DNA of 25,993 nt from a virus. The notes under the pieces were generated by a model. It saw only the letters and a program-made list of their open reading frames with translations, did no database searches and was not told where the DNA came from. The position numbers and the translations under genes were made by a program. The DNA is taken from UHGV virus genome UHGV-0145247. One strand, written 5' to 3'. This document shows, one piece after another, positions 1,640 through 25,993 of this stretch. How positions within the stretch are numbered: position 1 is the first letter of the stretch; each line of letters begins with the position of its first letter.

Positions 1640-1693
1640 AATCTGTTCCTTATAAAAATAATGTCATCAACAGCCGTTAAATTCAGATACAGG

Positions 1694-3677: not shown

Positions 3678-3691
3678 TATCTATCCTCAGT

Positions 3692-5497: not shown

Positions 5498-5664
5498 TCA
5501 TTAATCATGATCATAATTGATGGTATTTTTTAATATATCGTTAGTAATTAAGATGTTTATGTCTCAAATGAATCTGAAATATACTAGTGGTTTAATAATA
5601 AATTAATTGTTAGTGCTCTTTTTATCACGTGGCATTGCTAAGTGGGCAGCAGATAATGCTGCAT

Positions 5665-5898: not shown

Positions 5899-6023
5899 AC
5901 CGATTTGTTCCTTGTTGGCCCTGTATGGATGGGGCTAACTTTACCGAGAGGGCAAAATGGGATCCAGATATGTACCAAAAGTAAAAAAAAACTGTGGAAT
6001 GTGACGTTTTAAGAGAGGTTGGG

Positions 6024-6740: not shown

Positions 6741-6913
6741 TTTTACCCATATGGACATTGGGACGTTGGCATCGTGGTGAAGGAGTACATTAATTAGCCG
6801 AAATCGTGAAGTATCTGCCTATGTGCAATTCGCTTTTTAAGATGGAATCCACGCCGTCTTCATAGACGGCGGAACTTTAACTAAACTGCAACTAAACATT
6901 GTTGGTATCTTCC

Positions 6914-8155: not shown

Positions 8156-8165
8156 GGGGAATCTC

Positions 8166-8200
8166 CATGCGTTTAGGCCCAACGAAAACAATAGAGCTTT
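8166..8200. other. Perfect 13-bp stem hairpin (GGCCCAACGAAAA / TTTTCGTTGGGCC, 9-nt loop) just upstream of integrase start
   Basis: Inverted repeat read directly from sequence. Confidence 0.5.
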
Positions 8201-9889: not shown

Positions 9890-10060
9890 TCATAGCGGTG
9901 AATCATCCCCCAGCTTCGCCTTTAAATCGCCAGTGACAAACCAGGCTGGAATTTCTCCGGCATTATTAGAGGATCGCCCCTGCGGTGAGGTGAATGACCC
10001 ACGCACGGGAATTAGTTTGATGAGGCTGACACATCGGCCAATTTCTTCAATGGTGCGCAT
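9890..10060 (-). CDS. Small ORF (56 aa), translationally coupled to upstream gene
   Basis: ATG overlaps the stop of the 347-aa gene (TGATG), RBS GGAGG upstream; below ORF-track cutoff. Confidence 0.3.
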   Translation of the reverse strand: MRTIEEIGRCVSLIKLIPVRGSFTSPQGRSSNNAGEIPAWFVTGDLKAKLGDDSPL

Positions 10061-11103
10061 CACTTCACCTCCTGCGGGGCGGCTGCGAAGTGATTAATGG
10101 CCTTATCCCAGATTTCTTTGATGGTGGTCCAGTCAATCGGCATGGTGCTCGTCCAGGTTCCCTCGCCGCTGCAGTCGTCGCACCCTTCACCAAAACACTC
10201 ATGGCATGTCAGCGTATATTCAAGATTGAATTCCCCGAGAAGCGCTGCTTTTGCACCGTTCTCAGCGGTTAGCCTCATCGGCACCATCACGTACCCCTCT
10301 GGAATTACCGTGGAGTTGCTAGCATTTGGATGCAGAGCGCGAATCCCTTCGGCTAATTCTTCCAGGGTGGATGAATATCCGCGCTGGGCATCATTGCCGA
10401 ACTCGAACGCTCCGGTATCAGGATTAGACCATCCATGCTCGCTGTCGTATGCCTCACGCTGCTTATCTATCCATTTGGCGGCGGCTTCAATGCCATCGCG
10501 ATAGAAAGTGACTACTGGCGCTGGCTGCTCTTTGATGTGCAAGCGAGGTTCACCGTCTTTCGGCTCAGGCCATTCGCGCTGTTTGTTCACTGCCAGCTTT
10601 TCGATCATCGCCTGGGTAATCTGTTCGTCGGTGATACCGGCACGACGCTGGGCATCCCACATCAGGAATTGCATATCAGCCCACTCCGACAGGTCATCTG
10701 GTTCCGCTGCGGCCTCCATAGCCTCTTTTGCCAGATGCTTCAGTGGTCCAACAGGGCCGACATTACCGAATGTTGCCTGTGACCACTCTGAGTGCTCGCG
10801 GCGTACCTGCTCTCGGTCCTTTGCTGGTTGCGCTGGCGGATAATTTGCCAGCATCCAACTAATGACGTAGTCGTCCTTGAACCGCTCAACCGGAAATCCT
10901 TCATTCCAGTCACGGAAGTGATAGATAACTTTTGCCAGCTCAGGTTGAAGCGCCACCGGCTCGTTGTCCATTGCGGCCAGCGCCATGCGAGACAGCTCCT
11001 CAGCCTCTTCAGCTGGCAGCATTACGTTGCTTCCGGCACCGTAGGTTTCACGCCATGATTTAATTTTTTCCAGGCGCTCTCTGGTTATGGTCGATTTGGT
11101 CAT
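10060..11103 (-). CDS. Phage early protein with DUF550-like domain (Ead/Ea22-like), 347 aa
   Basis: Motif HLAKEAMEAAAEPDDLSEWADMQFLMWDAQRRAGITDEQI resembles the DUF550 family seen in lambdoid early regions (from memory). Confidence 0.5.
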   Translation of the reverse strand: MTKSTITRERLEKIKSWRETYGAGSNVMLPAEEAEELSRMALAAMDNEPVALQPELAKVIYHFRDWNEGFPVERFKDDYVISWMLANYPPAQPAKDREQVRREHSEWSQATFGNVGPVGPLKHLAKEAMEAAAEPDDLSEWADMQFLMWDAQRRAGITDEQITQAMIEKLAVNKQREWPEPKDGEPRLHIKEQPAPVVTFYRDGIEAAAKWIDKQREAYDSEHGWSNPDTGAFEFGNDAQRGYSSTLEELAEGIRALHPNASNSTVIPEGYVMVPMRLTAENGAKAALLGEFNLEYTLTCHECFGEGCDDCSGEGTWTSTMPIDWTTIKEIWDKAINHFAAAPQEVK

Positions 11104-11393
11104 GGTTGGCTCCAGTTATCCTCGATAGCCACGCCCAAGCGGTGTAGCCAGTCTGCAAGTTTGAGCATCGATTCGCGGTCGCTAAGTCCTTCCGGAAAGT
11201 CTTTCAGTTCGATAGTCGGTATAAAGCGACCGAAGCTATCGCGCTCTACCGTTAGAAATTGCTCCAGAACAGTCTGCTGAATGCGGCTGTTATGCCGCAC
11301 CAGGTAAACATATTTGGAGTCTTTGGCTTTAGGCTCGTAGAGATACTCGGTCAGTATCATCTGGCTTCTGGTGCGATCGGTTCCTCTCCACAT
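11100..11393 (-). CDS. Hypothetical phage protein (~97 aa), abuts IS110 insertion
   Basis: ORF with ATGA overlap to downstream gene; ATG at 11393 preferred over GTG at 11396. Confidence 0.45.
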   Translation of the reverse strand: MWRGTDRTRSQMILTEYLYEPKAKDSKYVYLVRHNSRIQQTVLEQFLTVERDSFGRFIPTIELKDFPEGLSDRESMLKLADWLHRLGVAIEDNWSQP

Positions 11394-11396
11394 CAC

Positions 11397-12550
<1,154 letters not shown>

Positions 12551-12561
12551 TGAAGTGGTGT

Positions 12562-13065
12562 TCAAGACAGTTGCTCCACCTTGATGCCAGCGGCGGTCAG
12601 CGCCGCTAGAAATTCGTCAACTTCATCACGCATGTATATTCCAAGCTTCTCTCCGCCGACTGTGATATGCCCCGGCCGCATCGGTTTCACGGTGACGGTG
12701 CGGGACTCCAGCTCGGCGATGCGCTCTTTTGCCACCAATAATTCAGCAGCAATTTCACGCCAACTTTCATAACTGGCCTCAAGCTTGTCCCAATCAGGGT
12801 TGAAGTTGGCAAGCTCAGACAACTGGCCTTTCAGAAACGCATTACTCTTCTGCGCCTTCTCCAGCGCCTCTGCCATCTCAGCGCCAGCCGCTTTCCATGC
12901 CTCCCACATTCCCTCAAGCTCTGAGTCGTCATCGTCAACCTTATAGCCTTCCCCATCGCGCCAGTGCGACCAGCCAAAACGCGGCGGATTGCCGTTATGC
13001 TGGGTGCGCTCCCACCACGCTTCGAATTTCTCTCTCTGCGCCAGTTCGGTGATATCAGTTGTCAT
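12562..13065 (-). CDS. Hypothetical phage protein (167 aa)
   Basis: Acidic, coiled-coil-like ORF; start overlaps methyltransferase stop (ATGA). Confidence 0.55.
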   Translation of the reverse strand: MTTDITELAQREKFEAWWERTQHNGNPPRFGWSHWRDGEGYKVDDDDSELEGMWEAWKAAGAEMAEALEKAQKSNAFLKGQLSELANFNPDWDKLEASYESWREIAAELLVAKERIAELESRTVTVKPMRPGHITVGGEKLGIYMRDEVDEFLAALTAAGIKVEQLS

Positions 13066-13790
13066 GCTGCACGCTCCCGTTTAATCACCATGCGCTCGAA
13101 TGCGGTGCAAAATATTTCCGGATCTTTTTCTACGCCTATAAACCGGCGCCCTGATTGCTGACACGCAACGCCAGCAGTCCCGCTACCCATAGTGAAGTCC
13201 AGTACTGTATCGCCATGATTGCTGTAGGTTTCAATCAGGTATTTCACAAGCGCCAAAGGCTTTTGCGTTGAATGAAGAGCTTGTTTTTGCTTATCACTAG
13301 AGAATTTCTGCACATCTCGCGGATAGCGGCTTGTTGAATCGTAAGTGACTTTTTTCAACGCCTCGCCATAGACATCAGTATTCGGCGTGCCTCTTGTTGC
13401 AGTTTTTCTGGCGTGCCCATGCGTCATCTGTGGGTTGTATGTCGGCTGCTTTCTGTAAAAAACCTCAATATTTTCATGTGCACGAAGAGGTTGTTTTTTC
13501 GCATTCAGGAAACCTGTAGCGTGTGGCTTCTCCCAAATCCACTCCGACCGCCAGTCCCGCAGATTGCTGTTAATCAGCACGCTGGTGAACGGCTGAGCGG
13601 AAAACAGCACAATAGCGGCGCTGGGCTTAGCGATGCGGTAGAGTTGCTCCCACATCAGAGCCAAGTCGAGAACAGAATCCCAGCGGCACTGAGTGGTACC
13701 GTATGGGATATCAGCACATACCAGGTCAACGGTACCGCTGGCGATTTTCGGGAATACGTCGAAGCAATCTGCGTTGTGAAGGTAGATCAT
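13062..13790 (-). CDS. DNA methyltransferase, N6-adenine/N4-cytosine type (242 aa)
   Basis: Motif IV-like DIPYGT near N-terminus and AdoMet-binding DFTMGSGTAGVA near C-terminus. Confidence 0.8.
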   Translation of the reverse strand: MIYLHNADCFDVFPKIASGTVDLVCADIPYGTTQCRWDSVLDLALMWEQLYRIAKPSAAIVLFSAQPFTSVLINSNLRDWRSEWIWEKPHATGFLNAKKQPLRAHENIEVFYRKQPTYNPQMTHGHARKTATRGTPNTDVYGEALKKVTYDSTSRYPRDVQKFSSDKQKQALHSTQKPLALVKYLIETYSNHGDTVLDFTMGSGTAGVACQQSGRRFIGVEKDPEIFCTAFERMVIKRERAA

Positions 13791-14380
13791 TTGTCGGCCC
13801 CCTCGCGCAGCTGCTGGGCGTAGTAGTCACGCAGCGCACAGGCCGCAACAGAAATAAGCGTGTCAAAATCACAAACAACCGTATCGCCGTTGTGCTGTTC
13901 TGAATTTGCGATCACCTTAAGAGCGCTCACCAGCGGGGCTGCAGCATCAGCCTTAATCCCGGCTACGATGCGATCGGTGGCGGGGGTTGCCACCGAGTCA
14001 ACCAACCGGTAATTGCATGTTTGATAGGTGTGCTGGCTATCGGAGGTATGCAGCCCTTGAGCATCGAAGCCTTGAGCCTGTTGAATCACGACACCCCATG
14101 ACACGCGCTGAACATCTTCGCTCCAGCCGTCGTCTGCGTCCTCACGGTAAGCGTCAATCTCTTCCTGCGCTGTATCAATAGCGTTCTGCTTGTCTTTGAA
14201 ATAATCAAAACCGTATTCAGGCGAGTATGCGAAGTAAGTTACGCCAGCCTTTAGCCCCACATTCTCCGCAGCCACATCCAGATATGCTTTCGCCAGCGCC
14301 ATAACCTTTGTCTCTTTGATCGACAGCTCGCCCGCAGACTCAAGCGACTGAATGAGCTCGTTTACTGTTTCGATGTTCAT
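13787..14380 (-). CDS. Hypothetical phage protein (197 aa)
   Basis: Start taken at internal ATG 14380 (MNIETV), which overlaps the stop of the upstream small ORF. Confidence 0.5.
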   Translation of the reverse strand: MNIETVNELIQSLESAGELSIKETKVMALAKAYLDVAAENVGLKAGVTYFAYSPEYGFDYFKDKQNAIDTAQEEIDAYREDADDGWSEDVQRVSWGVVIQQAQGFDAQGLHTSDSQHTYQTCNYRLVDSVATPATDRIVAGIKADAAAPLVSALKVIANSEQHNGDTVVCDFDTLISVAACALRDYYAQQLREGADK

Positions 14381-14511
14381 GCCGTCACCCATTCGATCAT
14401 CATGCATACGCCCCAGGTCACAGCGACTACTGCAACCCACCCGATAACACTGACCAGTGCAGCAAACCAGAGAAGGGCGCGCCGGCTGTAATTTTCAGGT
14501 TCAAAGTTCAT
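14377..14511 (-). CDS. Small hydrophobic protein (44 aa), likely membrane peptide
   Basis: MNFEPENYSRRALLWFAALVSVIGWVAVVAVTWGVCMMIEWVTA; ATGA overlaps at both ends; below ORF-track cutoff. Confidence 0.35.
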   Translation of the reverse strand: MNFEPENYSRRALLWFAALVSVIGWVAVVAVTWGVCMMIEWVTA

Positions 14512-15293
14512 TGCGCCTCCCCAATTACCCAGCGCAGAGCCTCGGCATATTCGCCGCTGGCATCTTCAAGGGCTTTAGTGATTTCCTTACGCGATTTGAT
14601 GCGCGGCTTTGCCTCACCGAGAACCTGACGCTGCCGACGGGATTTTTCATGGCCTTTGGTACCAGCTGTCGCCAGCTCGATTTCTGCCACTTTTGCCCGC
14701 TGCTCTTCAGGTGGGAGCGCGCCAAGCTGACGCGCCTGGGTAACGGTAACTGTGCCAGACTCGACCGCTTCACGAACAGCCTGGGTAGCATCGAGTAGTG
14801 ACAGCGTTGCACGGACAGTCTGAACGCTACAGCCAAACAACACCGCAAGGTCGTCCTCGTCATGACCACGATCCAGCGCGTCTGACATTTTCTTAGCTCG
14901 ACCTAATGGCGTATCAGGTCGGCGGATTTCGTTTTCGCTGACCATATATTTGGCCATTTGGTTTGCAGACCCACGCTTAACGACTCCAGGAACAAGCAGC
15001 GGTGTTTTGCCTTCTTTCAGCAGGAGCTTATTGGCTTCCAGCGTATGTTTAACGCGCTGACGACCGACAACCACACAGGTGAGCCCCTTTTCAGGGTCTT
15101 TCCAGACAATAATCGGCTCAAGAACACCCAGCTCCTTGATATTCAGCACCATCCCTTCATCGATCGGCAGATTGACTCGCTCATCGTAAAGCGGGTGGGC
15201 CTTGTCAGTGACAATATGCAGATTTTCCGGCTCGAACATCAGAACGTTTGTCTTGCCGCTGGCGCCATAAGCATCGATCGAGTTTTTAGCCAT
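14508..15293 (-). CDS. ParB-like nuclease-domain protein (261 aa)
   Basis: ParB N-terminal-domain-like segment LGVLEPIIVWKDPEKGLTCVVVGRQRVKHTLEA; RBS GAGGAA. Confidence 0.65.
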   Translation of the reverse strand: MAKNSIDAYGASGKTNVLMFEPENLHIVTDKAHPLYDERVNLPIDEGMVLNIKELGVLEPIIVWKDPEKGLTCVVVGRQRVKHTLEANKLLLKEGKTPLLVPGVVKRGSANQMAKYMVSENEIRRPDTPLGRAKKMSDALDRGHDEDDLAVLFGCSVQTVRATLSLLDATQAVREAVESGTVTVTQARQLGALPPEEQRAKVAEIELATAGTKGHEKSRRQRQVLGEAKPRIKSRKEITKALEDASGEYAEALRWVIGEAQ

Positions 15294-15486
15294 TTCTGTT
15301 TTCCTCGCTCAGGTTCGCTATCATCGCGGCCATAGCGGTGTTCTGGTCCATTGCCTCTGTAAGGGCGACAAAGGTCACATCCAGCCTTGACGCTATGTCT
15401 TGCATTAATTGTGCTGCTGCTGGTGGTAGGTCAGGTGCTGCAGCGTATGCTGCAGCAACCAATTCTTTCACTTTCACGTGTGCCAT
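15286..15486 (-). CDS. Hypothetical small protein (66 aa)
   Basis: Ala-rich ORF with RBS, overlaps start of ParB-like gene. Confidence 0.4.
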   Translation of the reverse strand: MAHVKVKELVAAAYAAAPDLPPAAAQLMQDIASRLDVTFVALTEAMDQNTAMAAMIANLSEENRNG

Positions 15487-15517
15487 TAGCGCCGCTCCAT
15501 CAGTTGGTTAAAGCGGT

Positions 15518-16012
15518 TCATGAACAGGCCATAAGATTGACCAGGGCGGCGGGATTAATCACAAATTGGTCGGTGGGAATAATACCGTCGAGCATCGGCC
15601 AGTGGGTGCCGTCGTCGATCTCAAAGTCGCGACGTTCGCTGGCGAGCATCACAAGGTCGGCATACTTTACGGTCGGGTGCTGCTCAGCTGGCAGGCAGAA
15701 TTTTTGACGGATAGCAGCATCAACCCGATCCTCAATGGCGCGGTAGTCCGGGAGCAGGCGCTTAAGCGGTGCTGGAATATCCTGCAAATAAGCCTCTGCG
15801 GCATCGTGCAGTAGTGCTTCAAGAGCAAACTCCTGTGGTACCAGGTGGCTGGTTAACACGCTGTGCTGACCGACGCTGTAGAACTCCGGAAGATGGCCAG
15901 CAAAGCGGCAAATATTCGAGAGCGCGTTAGCGATATCTTCGATCTCAATGGCATCCAACTGGATATCGAGATAGTTAAAGTGCTTGCCTGTGAACGTTTG
16001 AATAAAGCTCAT
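15518..16012 (-). CDS. HD-domain phosphohydrolase (YfdR-like), 164 aa
   Basis: HD motif context ALEALLHDAAEAY; start at internal ATG 16012 with RBS GGAGAA. Confidence 0.7.
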   Translation of the reverse strand: MSFIQTFTGKHFNYLDIQLDAIEIEDIANALSNICRFAGHLPEFYSVGQHSVLTSHLVPQEFALEALLHDAAEAYLQDIPAPLKRLLPDYRAIEDRVDAAIRQKFCLPAEQHPTVKYADLVMLASERRDFEIDDGTHWPMLDGIIPTDQFVINPAALVNLMACS

Positions 16013-16108
16013 CGTATTTCTCCATTTAATTGCGCTCTGCACAGCGCTGATTTTTAGGTGTAGGAATCCCTCGCCGGGTGGCGATTAATTTCAGGATTAC
16101 GCTTTAAT

Positions 16109-16132
16109 AAATCCCCGCAACGACGGGGATTT
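16109..16132 (-). other. Stem-loop AAATCCCCG-CAACGA-CGGGGATTT between YfdQ-like and HD genes
   Basis: Perfect 9-bp inverted repeat; weak T-tract on minus strand. Confidence 0.3.
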
Positions 16133-16144
16133 AATGGAGAGCAA

Positions 16145-16972
16145 TCAGGCTTTGAAGTTGCCGATAAAGGTTTCTACCGGCTTGCCGTCGAACTTGCCAA
16201 CCAGAAGATCACGGAACTCATTAGCGATCGCTTCTTCCTGGGCCTCCAGTTGGACAATTCGCAGAACGAACACCGGGTCGCTACTTTTCAGCAGACTGTT
16301 GCGCAGACTGAAACGACGTTCGCCCAGGCCTTCATAGGGTACACACTTAAACTCAAACGCGACCGGCATAACATCTTTACTGCTGGCTTCGATACTTTGC
16401 ATCAGCGATTTTTTGCCGCTGAAATCACCGTCTTCATGATCGGCGGCATTAGTTTGCTGGATAGTGACACGGCGAACCGCCTGCGCTGCCTGTGCAATTT
16501 TCATTGTCTGTCCGTCAGCATCGAACGCAGTGAGATAGTCGCTCCAGTCTTCGAGCCATTCGGCGATTTGCTTCTGATTAAGGTGATCGCCGTTGATCGC
16601 CAGTAACGCGCGGAAGGGCGCTGTTTTCTTTAGCTTGATCGAGGCGACGTTATCAGCATGACCAGGGTTGTCCAACGTGCCGATATTGAAGATAGAACGA
16701 GCCAGCATGTTATCGGCATCAATAAAGCAACGTGCTTTTTCTTCTTCCAGGGCATAAGCGACAGAATAGCGAACGAAATCATCAATGCTAGTCGTGTCCA
16801 TGGCACCGCGGAAACGGAAACGCTCAAGAGCAAAACGCTCCAGGCTTTCAATGCTGGTATTCTGCGGTAGCAGGGCGGTCGGACAGGCCAGGCCGGGGAT
16901 ATCGTTCAGGTGATAACCGGAAAGCACCAGATCTTTAACCTGCTGAAAAGTACCGCTGTCTAACTGAGACAT
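16145..16972 (-). CDS. YfdQ-like (DUF2303-type) phage protein, 275 aa
   Basis: Size and gene order (123-aa / 275-aa / HD hydrolase) resemble the yfdP-yfdQ-yfdR module of an E. coli prophage (from memory); RBS AAGGAA. Confidence 0.55.
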   Translation of the reverse strand: MSQLDSGTFQQVKDLVLSGYHLNDIPGLACPTALLPQNTSIESLERFALERFRFRGAMDTTSIDDFVRYSVAYALEEEKARCFIDADNMLARSIFNIGTLDNPGHADNVASIKLKKTAPFRALLAINGDHLNQKQIAEWLEDWSDYLTAFDADGQTMKIAQAAQAVRRVTIQQTNAADHEDGDFSGKKSLMQSIEASSKDVMPVAFEFKCVPYEGLGERRFSLRNSLLKSSDPVFVLRIVQLEAQEEAIANEFRDLLVGKFDGKPVETFIGNFKA

Positions 16973-17028
16973 AAAAATTCCTTATTTACTGATTAGCGAA
17001 GTGGTATCAGTGAATTTGTACGTGCGGT

Positions 17029-17400
17029 TCACTGAGCCGCTTTAAGCTTTCCGTCCACCGCGCCGGTGATACCGAAGAGTTGCCCCTGATCCTCCTGCAG
17101 GATAGTGAGCTTGCCGCCTTTGTTAACCCACATTGGTGTTTCGGTGGTGTCCTCTTCCGACGCTTTGCCGCGGGGAGTAGGAGTGCTGTAGTTCAGCTTG
17201 TGCTTAATCTTGACGCGCTTCTCTTCAACAGAGTTGCCCATACGCTCAAAATCAAAGGTGAGGACAACCTTGCCTTTGTTGCCATTGTTCAGAACGCCGA
17301 GCGCGGTGGTATTAAGAGCCGCCGCAATCTTGTTCATGAATACGCCGGCGTCCAGTTCACCGAGGAAATCGGGCACTACTGTCATGCGATCATTACTCAT
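17029..17400 (-). CDS. Hypothetical phage protein (123 aa)
   Basis: Start at internal ATG 17400 (MSNDRMTVV) with RBS GAGGG. Confidence 0.5.
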   Translation of the reverse strand: MSNDRMTVVPDFLGELDAGVFMNKIAAALNTTALGVLNNGNKGKVVLTFDFERMGNSVEEKRVKIKHKLNYSTPTPRGKASEEDTTETPMWVNKGGKLTILQEDQGQLFGITGAVDGKLKAAQ

Positions 17401-18497
17401 GGTTTTACCCTCTCGAAAGGCGGCTGCCACCGCCGGGAATTTCTCCGTACACAACACAGAAGAGCACCTGCGGTTAGGACGCCGCCCGGGTGGATTGGGT
17501 AATGAGCCCGTCGCCCGGTGATGCTCTTTTGTATTGTGTAAAAAGGGCGGTTATCCATCAGAACGTTATCCTCTTCCTCCTTTGGATAGTGGAAAACTGG
17601 ATAACCGCCAAGACTACACACAGCACAGTTAACTAGGTTGTGGCGGTGGTGCCTCCACCTGCCGGGTTAAGCCATTACCGGCGACGTACACTGCCCGGAA
17701 ACGCATTCCATGAACGGGTTGGCTCGCCACGTGCGCATAGCCGCAATTACCACAACGGAAAGAGCACTCCGATCTTCTACCAACGCCCCGTCGTAGCTTT
17801 TCGGCGCATCCACATGGCGCTTGGGTTTCAGCCTCGTGTGGCGGGAATGCTCTTACCTGTTGTGTCCCGGACTCTTCCCGGGCGTCACACCTTTTCGCCG
17901 CGCTGGTGGGGCGCACGTCGTGCCTGAAACACTTGGCTTGCACATTCCAGTTGTCCGGATAGCGCATGGAACTTCAAGGGAACCATCCGGGCTGCTAACG
18001 CTGCATGTGCCATACAACGGTTGTGAATATTGCCGTTCACAACTGGAAGCGCACTCCTTCAGTTACAAACCAGTCCCCACGACGGATGAAGATGGAATGC
18101 GCTTTCATGTTGTGTACGGTTCACCTACCCCGGTCCGGCGGCGCCACATCGCCGGGGCAGATGCAAAGGATCGTTACGCGATCATTCGGCTTGTTGATAT
18201 GGCCGGAAGTATCAAGTCCCGACATCGCGGATTCTGCTTCTCCGCCCCGATTTCACCCCCGCTATTGTTTAGCGCGCAAACCGAGAAAATCGCCTTCAAC
18301 GCTGTCGGCTTTCGCCATGTTCGATCAGGTATCTTCGGGCGGGGAGCCGGCGACCAACCGGCACAACCCCTACAGTATTAATCCAGGTCTACTGGACCCT
18401 CGACGCCGTGGGTTAAACGGCTGCTGTATGTCGGGTGAGTTTCTGTTGCTGGTGGTCAATCCAGCTCCGCAACCCCTCCCGAAGACACCTGAGGTAA

Positions 18498-18731
18498 TTA
18501 AATTGCCTTAGCCGGCAGGCCGAGGACGCTACGCATTTCTTTTTGAGTGCGAATGGCTATGGCGATCGTTAGGTCAATATCTCCGCGGTAAGCTGTGCCA
18601 TCTTCACAAATAATAAGAGTGATTGATTTTTTGCCTTTCTTGCTTACCTCGAAGCGATGCGCTTTACGGACTACATGACAGCCGTTTGCTAATGCGTCCT
18701 TGATAAGGTTTTCAATGCCTTTGCTCGCCAT
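18498..18731 (-). CDS. Hypothetical protein (77 aa), first leftward gene beyond cI
   Basis: RBS AGGAA 7 nt upstream of ATG 18731. Confidence 0.5.
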   Translation of the reverse strand: MASKGIENLIKDALANGCHVVRKAHRFEVSKKGKKSITLIICEDGTAYRGDIDLTIAIAIRTQKEMRSVLGLPAKAI

Positions 18732-18865
18732 GTTCTGTTCCTATTTGGTTTATCTGTTAGCGAATCATCCCGGTCTTCATATGCCCCGGGCGGCTACTTC
18801 GTGGGCGTCCTGCCTCTTCGCTGTTGATAGATGAAAATCTAACTTAACTTAGTTTTGTCGTCAAG

Positions 18866-18896
18866 AAAAAACACCAAACTTTTCTTAGCTTGGTGT
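18866..18896 (-). terminator. Rho-independent terminator downstream of cI
   Basis: ACACCAA / TTGGTGT stem followed on minus strand by T6 (18866-18871). Confidence 0.45.
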
Positions 18897-18916
18897 CGAA
18901 GGGAGATTAGCTTAGA

Positions 18917-19543
18917 TCAGAGCTCGTATTGAACGCCTTTAACCACACCAATAATGACGCAGTTACCATTGATGGCGATGTTAGGATAACGGGGATTTAG
19001 CGGGACAAGAAATTTTTGCGGACCGTCTACAACCAGTTTTTTGACCGTGGCCTCGTTGGTCCCATCTATTCGTGCAACTACAATCTTTCCATGAATGGGC
19101 TCAATGTCTGGATCAACGATGACCGTTGCGCCTTCAGGAATCGTGGGCAGTCCATTAGGATTTGTCATTGAGTCTCCCTTTACTTCAAGGGCAAACGAGT
19201 TATCGCTGATGCGGAGAGACGTTTCCACCCATTTTTCGGCATCATGCAAGACATCTTCAGGCTTTGATTCAGTGAATAATCCTGCTTGCACCCACGATAT
19301 CACGGGAACTTTTCGCATCTTAGTTATTAAGTTTCCCTCAAACTCAGTGCCAAAAAGTATGTAATCAATTGATGTATTGAAGAATTTTGCTAGTTTGGAA
19401 AGAGATTCCCCTCCTGGGACGTTTACATCCTTTTCCCAATACCCAACTGCGACATCACTGACCCCACAAAACTTCCCAAGCTCTTTTTGTGAGGTTCTGG
19501 TGATTCGCCTAAGCGATTTTATTCGTTGTCCGACAGTTTCCAT
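18917..19543 (-). CDS. cI: CI-like repressor (HTH + LexA-like S24 peptidase domain), 208 aa
   Basis: N-terminal HTH (TSQKELGKFCGVSDVAVGYWE), C-terminal S24-like region (EVKGDSMTNP...GKIVVARIDG); no SD before ATG, consistent with leaderless cI. Confidence 0.85.
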   Translation of the reverse strand: METVGQRIKSLRRITRTSQKELGKFCGVSDVAVGYWEKDVNVPGGESLSKLAKFFNTSIDYILFGTEFEGNLITKMRKVPVISWVQAGLFTESKPEDVLHDAEKWVETSLRISDNSFALEVKGDSMTNPNGLPTIPEGATVIVDPDIEPIHGKIVVARIDGTNEATVKKLVVDGPQKFLVPLNPRYPNIAINGNCVIIGVVKGVQYEL

Positions 19544-19643
19544 TTACACACCAGTAGTCAATCAAGCTAAGCAATCTTAGTTTTTATTGACCAAAGATAG
19601 ATTGGTAATTATTATCTAATCAAACTTAGTTAAAGGAGCCATT
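19544..19643. promoter_or_regulatory. Divergent cI/cro promoter-operator region
   Basis: 100-bp AT-rich interval between divergent cI and cro; palindrome CTAAGCAATCTTAG and related ACTTAG half-sites. Confidence 0.55.
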
Positions 19644-19853
19644 ATGACCACCGATGATGTTGAAAAGTACTTTGGAAACGCTGAGAAGGTAGCCGAGTTC
19701 TTTGGCATATCCAGCGAAGCTGTTTATCAGTGGCGGAACAGACCCGGTCGCTTGATCCCAAAAGGGAGGGCTGCTGAAGCCGCGTACCGCACCGATGGGA
19801 AACTTGTTTTCCAACCGGAGCTGTATAGCAAGCTTAAAGAACAAAAAGTTTGA
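19644..19853 (+). CDS. cro: Cro-like HTH regulator (69 aa)
   Basis: Strong RBS AAGGAG; small HTH protein divergent from cI. Confidence 0.7.
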   Translation: MTTDDVEKYFGNAEKVAEFFGISSEAVYQWRNRPGRLIPKGRAAEAAYRTDGKLVFQPELYSKLKEQKV

Positions 19854-19881
19854 TAGGAACCACAGAGATAAGGGGTAAGCC

Positions 19882-20364
19882 GTGGGTAATTCAACAGACA
19901 AAAATAATAGCAATAACGAAGTAACTCTGAAGGTGTTTAAAGACAGCCCGCACGTCTGGGCCGGCGGGCTGGATGGGCGTGACTTGGCATGCTGGTTAAT
20001 GGCAAGAGCGAACGCCATTTTGTTTATGGTTGAAAACCAAGAAAAACGAGACGCTATGTGTGCCGAATTGGTAAGGCTAAATGCACACTCTCTTCTTATT
20101 CAGGCTTACGCAGACCTTGGGCTTTCTCGGCTTGAGTGTAATCCCATTCGCTCTCCAAGCAAGGTGGCAATTCAATTCGATATTCAGTCTGGCCATAGAG
20201 TTCGTACTCATCACTCCAACGAACTGAATCAGGTAGCTCCAATACCTTTTCCGGAATTTTCACATTTGCCAGATCTTTCTGAAGCACAAGGAGAATATCA
20301 GCGAATGAAAGTTGCTGCACTCGGTCAGGGCTCCATCCAGTACGAGAAAAAACAAGATGATTAA
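19882..20364 (+). CDS. Hypothetical protein (160 aa, GTG start); conflicts with antiparallel ORF 20096-20566
   Basis: RBS AAGGGG before GTG; N-terminal 70 aa protein-like; 3' part overlaps minus-strand ORF. Confidence 0.3.
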   Translation: MGNSTDKNNSNNEVTLKVFKDSPHVWAGGLDGRDLACWLMARANAILFMVENQEKRDAMCAELVRLNAHSLLIQAYADLGLSRLECNPIRSPSKVAIQFDIQSGHRVRTHHSNELNQVAPIPFPEFSHLPDLSEAQGEYQRMKVAALGQGSIQYEKKQDD

Positions 20365-20566
20365 GCCCTGTTCTTCCGAAAAGAGGCTCCCACTTTGTTC
20401 CGAAGGCCTCTCTGTGTTCAGCAAGCAAAATATCAAGCCTCAGAAGATGCTCGGCCCGCAACCAGGCTCTGTAAAAAGGCAAGGAATCACCTTCGTTAAA
20501 CCATTGATGGATTTTTGCCATGTTCCAGACATGGAATCGGTAAACGCGAGACAAATCCAACGTCAT
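20096..20566 (-). CDS. Hypothetical protein (156 aa), reverse-oriented within early-right region
   Basis: Strong RBS GAAGGAGG 6 nt upstream of ATG 20566; protein-like composition. Confidence 0.45.
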   Translation of the reverse strand: MTLDLSRVYRFHVWNMAKIHQWFNEGDSLPFYRAWLRAEHLLRLDILLAEHREAFGTKWEPLFGRTGLNHLVFSRTGWSPDRVQQLSFADILLVLQKDLANVKIPEKVLELPDSVRWSDEYELYGQTEYRIELPPCLESEWDYTQAEKAQGLRKPE

Positions 20567-20643
20567 GTCGAACCTCCTTCGGTTCTTACTTGTGGAAAAG
20601 AAAGAATATCCGAAGGAAGGTTCGGCACCAATAGAGGTGTTGA

Positions 20644-21195
20644 ATGATGAATGAACCTGAATGGAAAGTTGATAAGCAGCCGGCATGGCTGGTGGCTGCG
20701 ATCAAAAAAACGATCACTGATTTGGACGGGGGATATGCAGAAGCAGCTGAATGGCTGGGCGTGACTGAAAACGCATTGTTTAACCGCTTACGTGCCGATG
20801 GTGATCAAATTTTCCCTCTCGGCTGGGCAATGGTCCTGCAGCGGGCTGGTGGGTCAAATCATATCGCCAATGCGATAGCGCGCCACTCGAATGGGGTCTT
20901 TCTACCGCTGGCAGATATTGAGGACGTGGACAATGCCGATATTAACCAGCGCCTGATGGAGTCCATTGAATGGATCGGCAGACATTCACAGTATCTGCGC
21001 AAAGCTACAGCTGACGGTGTTATTGACCAGGCCGAACGAGAGCAGATAGAGGAGAACAGTTATCAGGTAATGGCGAAATGGCAGGAGCATTTGACATTGC
21101 TTTTCCGTGTCTTTTGCCAGCCAGAAAAGAGTGACGCCCGCGAGTGTGCAGCTCCGGGCGTCGTGGCGAATAAATCTTTGTGTATGGAGAAATAA
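20644..21195 (+). CDS. CII-like phage regulatory protein with HTH (183 aa)
   Basis: HTH-like AEWLGVTENALFNRL; position after cro; RBS GAGGT. Confidence 0.45.
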   Translation: MMNEPEWKVDKQPAWLVAAIKKTITDLDGGYAEAAEWLGVTENALFNRLRADGDQIFPLGWAMVLQRAGGSNHIANAIARHSNGVFLPLADIEDVDNADINQRLMESIEWIGRHSQYLRKATADGVIDQAEREQIEENSYQVMAKWQEHLTLLFRVFCQPEKSDARECAAPGVVANKSLCMEK

Positions 21196-21367
21196 TCCGC
21201 ATGAGCAATTTAATCGTAAATCTTCAATTACCGCAACTACGGATGTACCCGATCCCGGGCGTTTCGTCGTTTCGGTATGAGCGCATGGTATGCGGTAAAT
21301 GGGTCGAGTGTAACCACAGTCGGGCGCGCGGAGTCGTGGGGGTCTTTAACCGGAGGGCTAAAGCGTT

Positions 21368-21547
21368 ATGCGAGAAGTTAACCGGAAGTTCAAAGACCAC
21401 TATGGCAATCCAGTCAGAGTTATCCGCTGGGAGCCTGAGACACGTCGTGTCATCTACCTGCGGGAAGGCTATTCCCACGAGTGCTTTAGCCCACTCGATC
21501 AGTTTCAACGCAAGTTCAGGGAAGTAGAGGGCAGCCATGAGCAGTAA
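21368..21547 (+). CDS. Small protein (59 aa), possibly DUF4222-like
   Basis: RBS GGAGGG 10 nt upstream of ATG; in-frame stop just upstream; overlaps start of replication gene; below ORF-track cutoff. Confidence 0.4.
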   Translation: MREVNRKFKDHYGNPVRVIRWEPETRRVIYLREGYSHECFSPLDQFQRKFREVEGSHEQ

Positions 21548-22448
21548 ATTACACGGCCTCGTATGGGAAGCATGCGCTTTCAAAGGGCTGATAATCTCAG
21601 AAATAGCGGTCATGGCTCGCCTGGCAGATTTCAGTAATGACGAAGGTGTGTCATGGCCAGCGGTAACCACTATTCAGCGACAGATCGGCGCCAAGAGCGA
21701 GAATACTGTCCGCAGTGCTATCAAAAAGCTTCAGGCTAAAGGCTGGCTGAAGAAGCAGGAACGGCGCGTGGGCGGAAAGAATAATTCGAACGTTTATAAA
21801 CTCAATGTTGACATGCTGGAACGTGCAGCAGCTGAAGCAAAAATTTTCTACGCAACGCCACGTGAACAATCAAAATTTGATGCCTCAGAATTTGAGGGTT
21901 CAAAATTTGATGGGTCAAATTCTGATGCCTCAAATAATGGGTCTGTACCCCCTCAAATATTGCGGGAGGACCCCTCAATGGTTGAAGGCGATCCGTCATT
22001 AGATCCGTCATTAGATCCGTCATCTAAAAAACCTTCTTGTCGGGCTCCTGCGGAACCCGACGATAAGCCGGATCCTGAAGTTGTTATCACCGATAACGCG
22101 ATCGAAGTTCTGGCACACCTGAATCTGGTCAGCGGTTCCCGTTACCAGAAATCTAAGACCTCACTGGAGAACATTCGCGCCCGCCTCCGCGAAGGTCATA
22201 CCGTTAGCGACTTGAAACTGGTAATCGACGTTAAGCATGAGCACTGGCATGGCAACGACGAGCAATACCAGTACATGCGACCCGAGACACTTTTCGGCCC
22301 TAAAAAATTCGAGGGATATCTGCAAAGCGCTATCCGCTGGGATGCTAAAGGCCGCCCGCCAAAGGAGTCGTGGGACAAAACCAGACCGCGGGATGTTAAT
22401 TCAATTAGTCCAGTACAAACCACAATTCCACGGGGGTTCCGGGGATGA
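21537..22448 (+). CDS. Phage replication initiation protein (lambda O-like), 303 aa
   Basis: N-terminal HTH-like region, internal iteron array at DNA level, position after cII-like gene. Confidence 0.7.
   Translation: MSSKLHGLVWEACAFKGLIISEIAVMARLADFSNDEGVSWPAVTTIQRQIGAKSENTVRSAIKKLQAKGWLKKQERRVGGKNNSNVYKLNVDMLERAAAEAKIFYATPREQSKFDASEFEGSKFDGSNSDASNNGSVPPQILREDPSMVEGDPSLDPSLDPSSKKPSCRAPAEPDDKPDPEVVITDNAIEVLAHLNLVSGSRYQKSKTSLENIRARLREGHTVSDLKLVIDVKHEHWHGNDEQYQYMRPETLFGPKKFEGYLQSAIRWDAKGRPPKESWDKTRPRDVNSISPVQTTIPRGFRG
21870..21944 (+). repeat. Five tandem 15-bp iterons (consensus TCAAAATTTGATGSS), putative phage origin
   Basis: Units at 21870, 21885, 21900, 21915, 21930; degenerate copies near 21953 and 21975. 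Confidence 0.6.
21993..22025 (+). repeat. Tandem 12-bp repeat CCGTCATTAGAT (2.75 copies)
   Basis: Direct tandem repeat adjacent to iteron array (encodes DPSLDPSLDPSS). Confidence 0.6.
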
Positions 22449-22903
22449 ACATAGCCAAGTCGATCTTTGAATTTATTGAGAAGAATCCAGGCAAAATGCT
22501 GCGCGATATCACTGCGGCATTTCCTGAAACCAAACCGGTAACAGTGAAGAGCGCTGTTCATCGCCTTTACTACGACGGGGAACTTGCCAGCGTTGAAGTT
22601 ACTGGTGGGTTTATCTACTTCGTAGCGGGAGCCATCGATATTGAAGAGTACCTGCCTGGTGGGCTTTCGGGGGAGATTCTTGCCCTTGAAGCGACAGCCA
22701 AAAAGCTGGAAGAGAAACGCTATTACCGCCGTGCGGCGACGGTATGGCAGCAACTTTGTGACAGCAACTGTACGGCTAAAGCAAGAGAGCGGTACCTGCG
22801 TCTTAAGAATGCTTCTATTCGAAACGCCAAAAACATGAATGATTCCGCCGGGTCATGCTATCTGGCAGGAAATTACTGCGGAGGTGACTTGTGCTCCGAT
22901 TGA
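22445..22903 (+). CDS. Hypothetical protein (152 aa), coupled to replication gene
   Basis: ATGA overlap with O-like stop; Cys-rich C-terminus. Confidence 0.5.
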   Translation: MNIAKSIFEFIEKNPGKMLRDITAAFPETKPVTVKSAVHRLYYDGELASVEVTGGFIYFVAGAIDIEEYLPGGLSGEILALEATAKKLEEKRYYRRAATVWQQLCDSNCTAKARERYLRLKNASIRNAKNMNDSAGSCYLAGNYCGGDLCSD

Positions 22904-23085
22904 AGAAGATTTTGATAAGTCTCCGGCGCCTTGTGCGTTTGCATCACTGGCGTTACTGGTGGCAGCACGACGTTATTTTTCGCAGAAAATACGCACTCCT
23001 CAGAGATGACCTTTTCAGCTTTGATCGCCGTTACTGGTTACTGAGAGCACTTGTTGATGCTGATCAGCGCAGGGGAAAACTATGA
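22891..23085 (+). CDS. Small Arg/Trp-rich ORF (64 aa, GTG start)
   Basis: RBS GGAGG upstream of GTG; stop overlaps ATG of Dam gene (ATGA). Confidence 0.3.
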   Translation: MLRLKKILISLRRLVRLHHWRYWWQHDVIFRRKYALLRDDLFSFDRRYWLLRALVDADQRRGKL

Positions 23086-24035
23086 GTCAGGAAGTACAAG
23101 AAGCTATGACCGCAGAAGAGCAAACTTTGACAAAAACCATCAACCCTTATTGCCTGGCACTTGAGGAACTGCGCCAGCGCAGTGCGCATTATTTGAAAGA
23201 GGTTGGCGATCAATGGCGTACCCCTGATCTGCTGTTCTGGGGCGTTAACGCTATGTTTGGCCCGTTGGTACTGGACCTGTTTGCAGACGACAGCAATACA
23301 AAATGTCCGGCATGGTATACCGCTGAAGATAATGCGCTGACGCAGGACTGGTCTGGTCGTTTGGTAGAACTCGTAGGAGCGGCCTTTGCTAATCCGCCGT
23401 ACAGCCGTTCGCAGTACCATGAAAAACAAGCCATCACTGGCATGACTCATATTATGAACTATACCGCCGAGCAGCGTGAAAAGGGTGGTCGTTACATTTA
23501 CCTCGTGAAGTCAGCAACAAGTGAAACATGGTGGCCGGAATATGCCGATCACATCATGTTTATTCGTGGTCGTATTGGATTCGATCTCCCAACGTGGTTT
23601 GTGCCGGCCGACGAAAAGCAGAAGCCCACCAGCGCATTCTTTGCCGGGGCCATTGCGGTATTTGATAAGACCTGGCGCGGTGAACATTTTAGCTATATCG
23701 ATCGCGTTGAGCTGGAAGCAAAAGGGCGCGCAAGTATGGCGCTGGCTGAGTTTGCTGCAGGAAAATTCCTGTCACCAGTTTCGCCAGTTCAGTCTCCTGA
23801 AGTGATCATCCCTGATGCTGTTGCATCATTGGCTGAGCCTGAATCCCGGATCTGGCCACTGGAAGTTGGACTCGTCTTTGGACAGGTACAAGGCGCAGAG
23901 GATCTGGAGTTCTCCCAGCAGAACAAGCTGAAGGCCCACATTAACCAGTTGTGGCTGGAGCGCGTGCCCACCAGCGAAATCATCACCGTTGCTGGTGGGC
24001 TGGTCGGCAGCATGAGGGGGACCGCTCATGCGTGA
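23082..24035 (+). CDS. Phage-type DNA N6-adenine methyltransferase (Dam family), 317 aa
   Basis: WRTP motif near N-terminus and NPPY catalytic motif (AFANPPYS). Confidence 0.8.
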   Translation: MSQEVQEAMTAEEQTLTKTINPYCLALEELRQRSAHYLKEVGDQWRTPDLLFWGVNAMFGPLVLDLFADDSNTKCPAWYTAEDNALTQDWSGRLVELVGAAFANPPYSRSQYHEKQAITGMTHIMNYTAEQREKGGRYIYLVKSATSETWWPEYADHIMFIRGRIGFDLPTWFVPADEKQKPTSAFFAGAIAVFDKTWRGEHFSYIDRVELEAKGRASMALAEFAAGKFLSPVSPVQSPEVIIPDAVASLAEPESRIWPLEVGLVFGQVQGAEDLEFSQQNKLKAHINQLWLERVPTSEIITVAGGLVGSMRGTAHA

Positions 24036-25993
24036 GATTATTGTCGATAATTTCGCTGGCGGCGGTGGAGCCAGTACAGGTATTGAACTGGCAATAGGGC
24101 GCAGTGTTGATATTGCGATTAACCACGATGTTAACGCCGTTGCTATGCACCGCACTAACCATCCCGACACGCTTCACTATTGCGAAAGTGTGTTTGATGT
24201 ATCCCCATTAGCCGCTACCAGTGGCAAGCCTGTCGGCCTGGCATGGTTCTCGCCTGACTGTCGTCACTTTTCTAAAGCGAAAGGTGCTAAACCAGTAGAG
24301 AAAGCTATTCGAGGGCTGGCATGGATCGTCATTCGTTGGGCGCTGGATGTTGGCCCGCGAGTCATGATGCTGGAAAACGTCGAAGAGTTTAAAACGTGGG
24401 GCCCGTTACTCGCGGCAGAAATGCGCCCGGATCCGGCACGCATCGGTGAAACTTTCAATGCATTTGTCGGGATGCTTACCACCGGTATTCCAGCAGATCA
24501 TCCTGCACTGGTGGAGTGTTGCGAGTTTCTGGAGTTTTCACCGGATAGCGAGCAGGCCAAGCGCTTAATTGCCGGGCTGGGTTATGTCGTCGATTTTCGC
24601 GAGCTGCGCGCCTGCGATTATGGCGCGCCGACCATCCGTAAGCGGTTCTTCATGGTGATGCGCCGGGACGGGAAACCGATAGTCTGGCCGGAAGCCACGC
24701 ACGGGGATCCGAAGTCTGCCGCCGTGCTGGCGGGCCAGCTTGAGCCGTGGCGTACAGCTGCGGAATGCATAGACTGGTCAATCCCAGCGCCGAGCATCTT
24801 CGGTCGCAAAAAGTCACTGGCAGAGAATACGCTAAAACGGATTGCCCGCGGCATTCAGCGCTTTGTTATCGAAAGTGCTTCGCCGTTCATCGTGAAGTGC
24901 AATCACACAACGACACGCGGCAAATACGACTGTTTCCGGGGACAGGCGCTGGATGATCCGCTACAGACGATTACGAAAACCCACGGCTACGCAATTGCGG
25001 TACCTCATCTGACAAAATTCCGAACTGGAGCTACCGGGCAGGAAGTCACCGATCCGTTGCCGACGGTGACGGCCGGTACCGCAAAACGCCCGGGCGGGAA
25101 TGGTCACGCTCTGGGTATTGTTGAAGCAGAGCTGGCGCCGTTCCTGGCTGGCAATGGCGGCAGCGAGTACCAGGCTAAACCACGCCCGCTCGATAAACCC
25201 GCTCACACCATCCTGAAAGAATCGCGCGCCTGTGTCGTCGCTCCGGTTATCGCCCGGCAGTTCGGCGCCAGCATCGGACACCGGGCGGATGAGCCTAGCG
25301 CAACAATCACCGCGGGCGGCGGAGGTAAATCGCAGCTGGTTGTGCCGACGCTCATTCAAATGGGATACGGGGAACGGCCAGGACAGGCACCTCGTGTGCC
25401 AGGACTGGATAAGCCGCTGGGCACCGTTGTGGCTGGTGGCGGGAAACATGCTGTAGTTGGTGCGTTCCTGGCAAAACACTACGGAGGGAATTATCAGGGC
25501 GCTGGCGTGGGGCTGGATGAGCCAGCGCATTCAGTAACGACTGCCGATCACCATGCATTAGTCGCTTCTCATCTGGTTAAGCTGCGCGGAACCTGCCGCG
25601 ATGGCCAGCGAACTGACGAGCCGATGCCGACTATCACTGCCGGTGGCCAGCATGTAGGGGAGGTTAAAACGACCCTGGCGGTCGAGGACTATGACGAAGA
25701 GCGAGCGCAGCAGGTGCTGTCGTTCCTGCAGGAATACTGCGGAGAGGAATGCACCGGGCTGGTGGAAATCGGCGGAGTGACTTACCGCATCGTTGATATC
25801 GGCATGCGCATGCTGCAGCCGCACGAGCTCTACCGGGCGCAGGGCTTTCCGGAGTGGTACATCATTGACCAGGATTACCGCGGCGTGAAGTACGCGAAAG
25901 ATAAGCAGGTCGCGCGCTGTGGCAATGCCGTTCCGCCACCGTTCGCCGAAGCGCTGGTACGCGCCAACTTACCCGAAATGTGCGTGAACAGAG
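24028..25993 (+). CDS. DNA cytosine-5 methyltransferase, 3'-partial (>=655 aa, runs off window)
   Basis: C5-MTase motifs I (NFAGGGG), IV-like (SPDCRHFSKAKG), VI (ENVEEF), VIII (DYGAPTIRKRFF), X (GNAVPPPF); long repeat-rich variable region. Confidence 0.85.
   Translation, partial: MREIIVDNFAGGGGASTGIELAIGRSVDIAINHDVNAVAMHRTNHPDTLHYCESVFDVSPLAATSGKPVGLAWFSPDCRHFSKAKGAKPVEKAIRGLAWIVIRWALDVGPRVMMLENVEEFKTWGPLLAAEMRPDPARIGETFNAFVGMLTTGIPADHPALVECCEFLEFSPDSEQAKRLIAGLGYVVDFRELRACDYGAPTIRKRFFMVMRRDGKPIVWPEATHGDPKSAAVLAGQLEPWRTAAECIDWSIPAPSIFGRKKSLAENTLKRIARGIQRFVIESASPFIVKCNHTTTRGKYDCFRGQALDDPLQTITKTHGYAIAVPHLTKFRTGATGQEVTDPLPTVTAGTAKRPGGNGHALGIVEAELAPFLAGNGGSEYQAKPRPLDKPAHTILKESRACVVAPVIARQFGASIGHRADEPSATITAGGGGKSQLVVPTLIQMGYGERPGQAPRVPGLDKPLGTVVAGGGKHAVVGAFLAKHYGGNYQGAGVGLDEPAHSVTTADHHALVASHLVKLRGTCRDGQRTDEPMPTITAGGQHVGEVKTTLAVEDYDEERAQQVLSFLQEYCGEECTGLVEIGGVTYRIVDIGMRMLQPHELYRAQGFPEWYIIDQDYRGVKYAKDKQVARCGNAVPPPFAEALVRANLPEMCVNR

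Follow-up and report, generated by a model that had tools for sequence, protein, structure and literature searches.

The viral genome sequence UHGV-0145247 was analysed as one stretch of 25,993 nucleotides (nt), hereafter called the window, which is, judging by its sequence, a lambdoid prophage of the Klebsiella oxytoca complex adjoining another integrative element. An earlier reading of this DNA, referred to below as the original prediction, had proposed three DNA methyltransferases (MTases) of three different classes. All three genes were found intact at the proposed positions, each with profile matches and catalytic motifs. The three genes, and the array of tandem units inside the C5-cytosine MTase (C5-MTase) that is the main subject here, are as follows.

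13062-13790, minus strand: MTase 1, a beta-class amino-MTase of 242 amino acids (aa), an apparent accessory cassette in the early-left operon
23082-24035, plus strand: phage Dam-family N6-adenine MTase, 317 aa, core at aa 36-216
24028-25993 (window end), plus strand: C5-MTase, 655 aa in the window
24928-25707 (aa 301-560 of the C5-MTase), plus strand: array of seven tandem units between motifs VIII and IX

It is textbook knowledge that temperate phages counter restriction with orphan MTases. Several of them on one temperate phage are an established anti-restriction arrangement, and public Klebsiella genomes already contain annotated copies or close homologues of the three present genes; for these reasons the finding of three MTases is in itself ordinary. 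The one feature for which we could not find a description in the literature is the cassette array of the C5-MTase.

The C5-MTase gene and its catalytic domain

The ATG of the C5-MTase gene, at 24028, lies inside the stop of the Dam-family gene, giving an overlap of 8 nt (ATGCGTGA), and is preceded by a GAGGGGG Shine-Dalgarno sequence. The 8-nt overlap confirmed the direct coupling of these two genes that had been noted before, and by its position the C5-MTase is predicted to be translationally coupled to the Dam-family enzyme. Because a complete homologue with 98% identity (P0002) has 660 aa, only about five codons of the gene fall outside the window. No frameshift was found, and the worry that the unseen remainder might carry one was not borne out.

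The C5-MTase matched PF00145 (E = 6.8e-19). Motifs I (FAGGGG), IV (SPDC78, containing the catalytic Cys), VI (E116-N117-V118), VIII (RKR, R204/R206), IX (RMLQPHE...QGFP) and X (GNAV) are arranged in the canonical order; all of them are invariant in 127 homologues. In the AlphaFold2 model, the predicted local distance difference test (pLDDT) score of the catalytic domain was above 90, and the model was reasonably confident up to about aa 285 (block pLDDT 67-95). The top Foldseek matches of the model were 3g7u, DNMT1, M.HhaI and M.HaeIII, with E-values from 1e-6 to 1e-9. At the level of the predicted structure, the C5-MTase fold of the catalytic domain is confirmed.

Seven tandem units between motifs VIII and IX

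A single target-recognition domain (TRD) is normal between motifs VIII and IX of a C5-MTase. In the window enzyme, about 385 residues lie between motif VIII (at about aa 203) and motif IX (at about aa 593). Conservation throughout the family extends over the 90 or so residues that follow motif VIII, and the seven units of the array, each of 33-47 aa, are arranged head to tail. Their alignment gave the pattern (L)D-x-P-x-x-T-[IV]-T-x-(G)G-x-h-x-h-V-x-x-x-L-x-K-x-x-G.

The repeat units of the array are real. When each unit was scored with a hidden Markov model (HMM) built from the other six, it obtained 9.7-27 bits, with a best shuffle score of at most 10.4, and for every one of the seven units none of the 1000 shuffles reached the real score (7 x 1000 trials). 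Repeats are almost absent at the DNA level, which argues that the array is old and has been maintained at the protein level.

In most family members, the last unit (PLHTVTTKDRFGLV) is followed by Y.IVDIGMRML. By eye, this unit resembles the region of M.HhaI that we take to comprise the TRD threonine, which is conserved, together with the strand that runs into motif IX. The complete last unit is kept in relatives from Serratia, Pectobacterium and Brenneria. In the Klebsiella C5-MTases this region (25690-25790 of the window, aa 555-588) is altered: the core of the usual last unit is gone, and the penultimate unit contains an inserted helix (EDYDEERAQQVLSFLQEYCGEE).

A large family with variable unit architectures

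An exhaustive search for the C5 family returned 2512 clusters at 50% identity (E<=1e-30), which span Proteobacteria, Firmicutes and other phyla. Members were named from Enterobacterales, Burkholderiales, Aeromonas, Paenibacillus, Brevibacillus, Sporomusaceae and Verrucomicrobia. The array region alone matched 94 isolated phage genomes, including those of Pseudomonas phage F116, Pectobacterium phage ZF40, Myxococcus phage Mx4 and Rhodobacter phage RcapNL. The Burkholderia and Brevibacillus members are located in early, recombination or replication modules of prophages, with no neighbouring nuclease. No description of this family or of its repeats was found in the literature.

Proteins of the family contain between 1 and 12 units, most often 8, and are 470-1100 aa long. 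Among 2068 units of the family, the P of the unit core is present in 99% and the T in 96%, and every unit therefore appears to be constrained at the position that matches the conserved TRD threonine of the M.HhaI type. Unit types were defined by greedy clustering of the unit cores, in place of single-linkage clustering, which had collapsed into one cluster. The types are partly positional, as one set always comes first, one is penultimate and one is last, abutting motif IX. The internal types recur at varying ordinal positions and in varying orders.

The alleles were compared among the 120 closest cluster representatives from Klebsiella and Raoultella (at least 85% identity), and eight cassette architectures were distinguished. 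The architecture ABCDEFGH accounts for 102 of the 120 and ABCDEFH, the type of the window, for 3; the other 15 show six further architectures, with swaps of E to I and of G to J, and deletions. Between near-identical Klebsiella alleles, single units are cleanly lost or swapped. Natural alleles are represented by P0001 (ABCDEFGH), P0002 (ABCDEFH), P0008 (ABCDEFJH) and P0116 (ABCDFJH).

Comparison with the multispecific C5-MTases of Bacillus phages

M.SPRI, M.Phi3TI, M.Rho11sI and M.H2I are likewise orphan C5-MTases of temperate phages that contain short tandem modules between motifs VIII and IX. In these Bacillus phage enzymes, all modules share one catalytic domain, and the enzymes act against restriction (PMC12707154). 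Several TRDs arrayed in one polypeptide protect Bacillus temperate phages against many restriction-modification systems, and in a 2025 review such arrays were reported only for these phages (PMC12707154). The SPR, rho11s and H2 sequences that we fetched contain three to four segments with a T-[LIV] core, represented in SPR by SPTITT, SHTLSA and PAFTVN. The window enzyme and its relatives share with them the tandem modules between motifs VIII and IX, and modules that are exchangeable and variable among related enzymes.

The two groups also differ. The Bacillus enzymes, of 439-503 aa, contain 3-4 modules, whereas the window enzyme contains 7, and the members of its family, of 470-1100 aa, contain 1-12. 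Homology of the modules to the SPR, rho11s or H2 TRDs was not found, there being no significant similarity of module sequence or profile, and by their catalytic domains the two groups fall into different C5 subfamilies. For the window C5-MTase, multispecificity is proposed from the sequence architecture. Because the array agrees with the Bacillus enzymes in its position, its T-[IVL] core and its modular exchange, we favour the reading that several recognition cassettes may be used alternately by one C5 catalytic domain.

The Dam-family MTase upstream of the C5-MTase

A phage Dam-family MTase with an NPPY motif had been predicted at 23082-24035, and this assignment was verified by PF05869 (E = 1.7e-42; 145 bits against a cut-off of 28.1) and by the TIGR01712 equivalog 'phage N-6-adenine-methyltransferase' (187.1 bits against a cut-off of 97.05). 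The catalytic motif NPPY lies within FANPPYSRS, and the region of aa 21-220 is 69% identical to the homologue in an Stx2-converting phage. In its score above the equivalog cut-off, its NPPY motif and the core that is 69% identical to the Stx2 homologue, the protein resembles the Dam enzymes of T1, HP1 and VT2/Stx phages. The characterised members of PF05869 and TIGR01712 (T1, HP1 and VT2) make G-m6A-TC, where m6A is N6-methyladenine. Given the identity to the Stx2-phage homologue and the published family members, GATC is most likely the target of this enzyme as well. A relationship of the Dam-family gene to the non-specific MTases of the Hia5 type was considered and rejected, since the latter are part of the lineage of E. 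coli Dam and DpnM.

Beyond the core, the protein continues at its C-terminus for about 100 further residues (aa 217-317, window 23730-24035), which are conserved. No Pfam domain was found in this extension, which is covered by PHROG 111 and by PADLOC PDLC03332. The Stx2-phage proteins are different, as they carry the same catalytic core fused behind a PAPS-reductase domain (phrog_33262), which is absent from the window protein.

All Klebsiella strains examined already methylate GATC (PMC9684165). In the case of lambda DNA, the host Dam methylates only about 50% of the GATC sites before packaging (PMC3299994). Because about half of the lambda sites are left unmethylated at packaging in this way, the contribution of the phage enzyme would most likely be completeness of GATC methylation and not new breadth.

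An adenine MTase together with a C5-MTase, neither with a nuclease, is also found in a prophage of Bacillus cereus ATCC 10987, as M.BceSVII and M.BceSV. M.BceSV (a multispecific C5 enzyme) and M.BceSVII (a promiscuous m6A enzyme) show activity once cloned, but none in the genome of their host (PMC3526280). Unlike M.BceSVII, the adenine partner in the window belongs to the Dam family PF05869 and is probably GATC-specific, not promiscuous. The locus tags of prophage phBC6A51 are of the BC series, unlike those of ATCC 10987, which begin with BCE; within the 50 kb listed for this prophage, no gene is annotated as an MTase.

MTase 1 and the ParB-like gene

MTase 1 matched PF01555 N6_N4_Mtase over aa 21-230 (E = 3.5e-27; 96.2 bits against a cut-off of 26.7), phrog_67 at 1.1e-65 and PADLOC MTase_II at 5.6e-75. 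The DIPY motif (aa 27-30) precedes FTMGSGT (aa 198-204), which is the beta-class order. The profile match and the order of the motifs uphold the description of this protein as an amino-MTase with DIPY and FxGxG motifs in the early-left operon. The target base is probably N6-adenine, since the Asp of DIPY favours adenine. The best solved relatives, DpnA, MboIIA, RsrI and CcrM, are distant (E = 1e-9 to 1e-13). At both its start and its stop, the gene overlaps the neighbouring open reading frame (ORF) by 4 nt. The upstream genes are the following.

13787-14440, minus strand: gene of phrog_492, with a 4-nt overlap with MTase 1
14508-15293, minus strand: ParB/RepB/Spo0J-like protein of 261 aa, a separate gene located 67 nt upstream of the next ORF

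The true start of ORF 13787-14440 is probably the ATG at codon 21. The ParB-like protein matched HTH_ParB at 3.3e-10 and PHROG 1033, 'ParB-like partition protein', at 4.9e-77; TIGR00180 gave 32.8 bits, which is below the cut-off of that model. The Pfam model of the ParB N-terminal ('nuclease') domain was not matched at E<0.01, and the designation of this gene as one with a ParB-like nuclease domain is not sustained, HTH_ParB being the only Pfam match.

The original prediction had also been reminded of phage ParB-MTase fusions by this gene. What the window has in common with such plasmid and phage fusions is an operon that contains both a ParB-like gene and, two genes away, a beta-class MTase. 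Unlike in the fusions, ParB and MTase 1 are separate polypeptides with ORF 13787-14440 in between, and their pairing is not conserved in relatives. In E. coli, homologues of MTase 1 with 83% nucleotide identity are present in P22-like ea regions and in plasmids of roughly 97 kb, and no ParB neighbour was found beside them. A related prophage of K. michiganensis has the same ParB gene without MTase 1, and in Klebsiella phage Mulock the MTase 1 slot is occupied by a 114-bp ORF, with conserved junctions. From this lack of a conserved neighbourhood in E. coli, K. michiganensis and Mulock, a functional ParB-MTase pairing was rejected. Because MTase 1 is replaced in Mulock, is absent from the K. michiganensis relative and is not consistently paired with ParB, its gene is, on this comparison of sequences, an exchangeable accessory cassette.

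M.EcoGII, a non-specific adenine MTase of an E. coli prophage, is similar to MTase 1 in being a prophage-borne orphan of the beta class, with a DPPY-type motif before FxGxG. MTase 1, like M.EcoGII, would be expected to be silent in the lysogen. M.EcoGII is longer, with 349 aa as compared with 242 aa, and no close similarity between the two was established.

Organization of the prophage

Between about 15.3 kb and the end of the window, the identity to Klebsiella phage Kp4866-6 is 93.8%. K. oxytoca assemblies contain MTase 1, ParB and Dam as exact copies, which are annotated there as 'site-specific DNA-methyltransferase', 'ParB/RepB/Spo0J family partition protein' and 'phage N-6-adenine-methyltransferase', respectively. 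The other features that define the prophage are listed below.

6914-8191, minus strand: P4-type integrase (Arm-DNA-bind_3), at the end of the left-hand island
8452-9642, minus strand: prophage integrase (phage type, Arm-DNA-bind_2)
10060-11103, early-left operon: 347-aa protein with a dATP/dGTP pyrophosphohydrolase domain (PF04447)
11404-12573, early-left operon: IS110-family insertion sequence, between the genes 11100-11396 and 12562-13065
11564-12550, plus strand: IS110-family transposase (PF01548 + PF02371)
15518-16042, early-left operon: HD-domain deoxyribonucleoside 5'-monophosphate phosphatase, YfdR-like
18917-19543, minus strand: CI-like repressor (helix-turn-helix + S24 peptidase; phrog_4, 1.8e-54)
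19644-19853, plus strand: Cro, the first gene of the early-right operon (PF14549 P22_Cro, 47 bits against a cut-off of 30.2)
21537-22448, plus strand: replication initiator (HTH_36 + Phg_2220_C), in the same operon, upstream of the Dam/C5 pair

The CI/Cro region separates MTase 1 on the left from Dam and the C5-MTase on the right, and the MTase genes thus belong to two divergent early operons that flank CI/Cro, instead of one prophage arm as had been described. The early-right operon proceeds from Cro through a CII-like gene, the replication initiator and two small genes to Dam and the C5-MTase, which runs off the window end. The leftward operon contains the gene with the dATP/dGTP pyrophosphohydrolase domain, the inserted IS110-family element, MTase 1, ParB, the HD phosphatase and DUF2303/YfdQ. 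With the pyrophosphohydrolase-domain gene and the HD phosphatase, the phage has nucleotide-pool enzymes alongside its DNA-modification genes. The flanks of the IS110-family element are contiguous in phage Mulock, which represents the empty site. A 390-aa ORF on the minus strand (11393-12565) was dismissed as an antisense artefact of this element, and no Rfam RNA was detected in its 160-nt 5' non-coding part.

The two tyrosine integrases stand back to back, both on the minus strand (6914-8191 and 8452-9642), and this pair suggests two mobile elements in tandem at one site. Neither tRNA genes nor Rfam families were found across the window. The left-hand island (window 1-6740) contains DUF932 (55-876), a WYL/HTH regulator (2212-3120) and DUF3944 (2949-3677). 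A low-GC stretch at 4000-7000 (41-43% GC) carries two ORFs, 4283-5497 (minus strand) and 5994-6740 (plus strand), for which no Pfam or PADLOC match was found; these could be defence cargo.

Search for a cognate nuclease

Restriction nuclease models of PADLOC and Pfam were compared with the genes neighbouring the MTases, and none matched in the window. In the colinear phage Kp4866-6 and K. michiganensis prophage, the genes downstream of the C5-MTase encode a LexA-DNA-binding-domain protein, RusA, a KilA-N protein, DUF968 and Q, and no restriction nuclease was found there, either. An endonuclease gene adjoining an MTase gene, as in type II restriction-modification, was not found, and the statement that the MTases have no cognate nuclease holds for both the window and its colinear relatives.

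In the same two relatives, the Q antiterminator is closely followed by a fourth MTase of 359 aa (PF01555). This enzyme is nearer in size to M.EcoGII than MTase 1 is. In K. michiganensis it is followed by an HNH_3 gene, and an Acb2/Tad1-hairpin gene (anti-CBASS/Thoeris-type) is located near the lysis genes. Because the window ends before the post-Q region, the window prophage may also have the fourth MTase. The features in the two relatives are located as follows.

Phage Kp4866-6 (L001), 20697-21776: fourth MTase
K. michiganensis prophage (L012), 16870-17949: fourth MTase
L012, 18226-18726: HNH_3
L012, 21447-21740: Acb2/Tad1-hairpin gene

A possible anti-restriction role and its alternatives

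On balance, we consider it probable that the three orphan MTases of the early operons serve anti-restriction, with the C5 cassette array as the source of breadth. In the lysogen, CI would keep all three MTase genes off. Upon induction or infection, the MTases would be transcribed together with the recombination and replication genes and would methylate the newly replicated phage DNA before packaging, and the progeny genomes would arrive in the next host already protected against restriction. Within this scheme, MTase 1 would be a swappable accessory cassette, probably for m6A, and the Dam-family enzyme would complete the GATC methylation left unfinished by the host Dam on rapidly replicating DNA. 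The C5-MTase would be the likely source of breadth, one catalytic domain using seven TRD-core-like cassettes alternately for several target sequences. We infer the timing of expression, the anti-restriction role, the GATC specificity and the assignment of one specificity to each cassette.

The early-operon position fits the published self-protective 'Trojan horse' methylation (PMC12707154, PMC5778455), and the prophage MTase M.EcoGII is silent in lysogens (PMC5778455). A broad anti-restriction strategy had been put forward from the three classes together. The orphan status and the early operons agree with it, but the Dam-family enzyme would add completeness, and the breadth more plausibly comes from the C5 array.

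Several points weigh against this explanation. The activity, expression and methylation of the three MTases are predictions from the genes, GATC methylation duplicates an activity of the host, and 5-methylcytosine (5mC) exposes DNA to type IV restriction (McrBC-like), so that broad cytosine methylation is not purely protective. With regard to the array, AlphaFold2 gave a pLDDT below 50 for aa 285-590 of the 660-aa protein (127 diverse homologues) and of 30-40 for the array of a natural 4-unit relative, P0143 (57 homologues). Because of these values, the packing of the units and their reach to the DNA cannot be derived from the models, and Foldseek on the C5 model returned the catalytic fold only and nothing on the array. 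When all sequences of the PDB were searched with a 104-unit profile, the hits were at chance level only (E >=0.4) and included no solved C5-MTase. The unit HMM against SPR, rho11s and H2 gave a best i-E of 0.06, for one SPR/rho11s segment in a four-sequence database, and hhalign of the units with an alignment of the SPR/rho11s/H2 TRD segments gave 1% probability. In the Klebsiella C5-MTases, moreover, the last unit type 'PLHTVTTKDRFGLV', which abuts motif IX in most of the family, is truncated and its core is gone.

The serious rival to the cassette reading is a scaffold or clamp of repeats. In that case the array would be a structural or DNA-binding element (a clamp, a spacer or a processivity element) in an enzyme of single or very relaxed specificity, with one unit doing the recognition. 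The fixed places of the first, penultimate and last unit types across the family are in agreement with such a scaffold, as are the absence of demonstrable homology of the units to Bacillus or solved TRDs, the near absence of DNA-level repeats in an array that is old and stable and not freshly duplicating, and the single architecture shared by 102/120 of the closest representatives. A rigid scaffold, however, would not be expected to undergo the clean single-unit swaps seen between near-identical alleles, which are expected of specificity modules; nor does it account well for the P..T core in every unit, with T in 96% of 2068, or for internal unit types that change position and order between proteins. 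We regard the scaffold as rather unlikely on this evidence.

It seems improbable that the MTases function mainly in the phage life cycle, that is, in replication, packaging, the timing of transcription or the epigenetic control of lysis and lysogeny. The location of Dam and C5 directly after the replication genes in the early-right operon would suit such a role, and the Dam family is likely specific for GATC, which the host already methylates. Packaging of P1 needs Dam methylation at the pac sites (PMC12707154), for which the Dmt of P1 may be compared. However, MTase 1 is dispensable, as a close relative has the 114-bp ORF instead and another lacks it, and a regulatory role leaves the seven to twelve variable recognition-like units of the C5 enzymes unexplained. 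Far less likely still is a restriction-modification or exclusion system that comprises one or more of the MTases and has its nuclease beyond the window. The end of the window inside the C5 gene, the fourth MTase after Q in the relatives with the HNH_3 gene next to it in K. michiganensis, and a weak HNHc_6 match of DUF968 leave room for such a system. Against it, no restriction endonuclease model was matched in the window, the genes past C5 in the two relatives are ordinary lambdoid nin-region genes, and the Burkholderia and Brevibacillus members of the family also have no nuclease as a neighbour. Phage HNH_3/AP2 genes are usually of the homing type, which also counts against a nuclease outside the window.

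Implications of the cassette array

Tentatively, the C5-MTase may represent a very large, uncharacterised family of phage-borne multispecific enzymes, in which one catalytic domain would read 1-12 exchangeable cassettes of about 40 aa, each for one target, and phages would adjust their anti-restriction spectrum by losing or swapping cassettes. This is a possibility to which we give less than even weight. If it is correct, the cassettes would be independent in origin from those of SPR and phi3T, or would have diverged from them beyond recognition. Since there are natural alleles with a difference of one cassette, the cassette idea can be tested directly and cheaply.

If the units work as recognition modules, the principle of the multispecific MTase would extend well beyond a handful of Bacillus phages, and the unusual length of the C5-MTases of such phages would be explained. 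Enzyme engineering could then draw on the family as a naturally occurring library of minimal modules for 5mC recognition, and the array could be of use in predicting the host range of phages, including the choice of phages for Klebsiella therapy.

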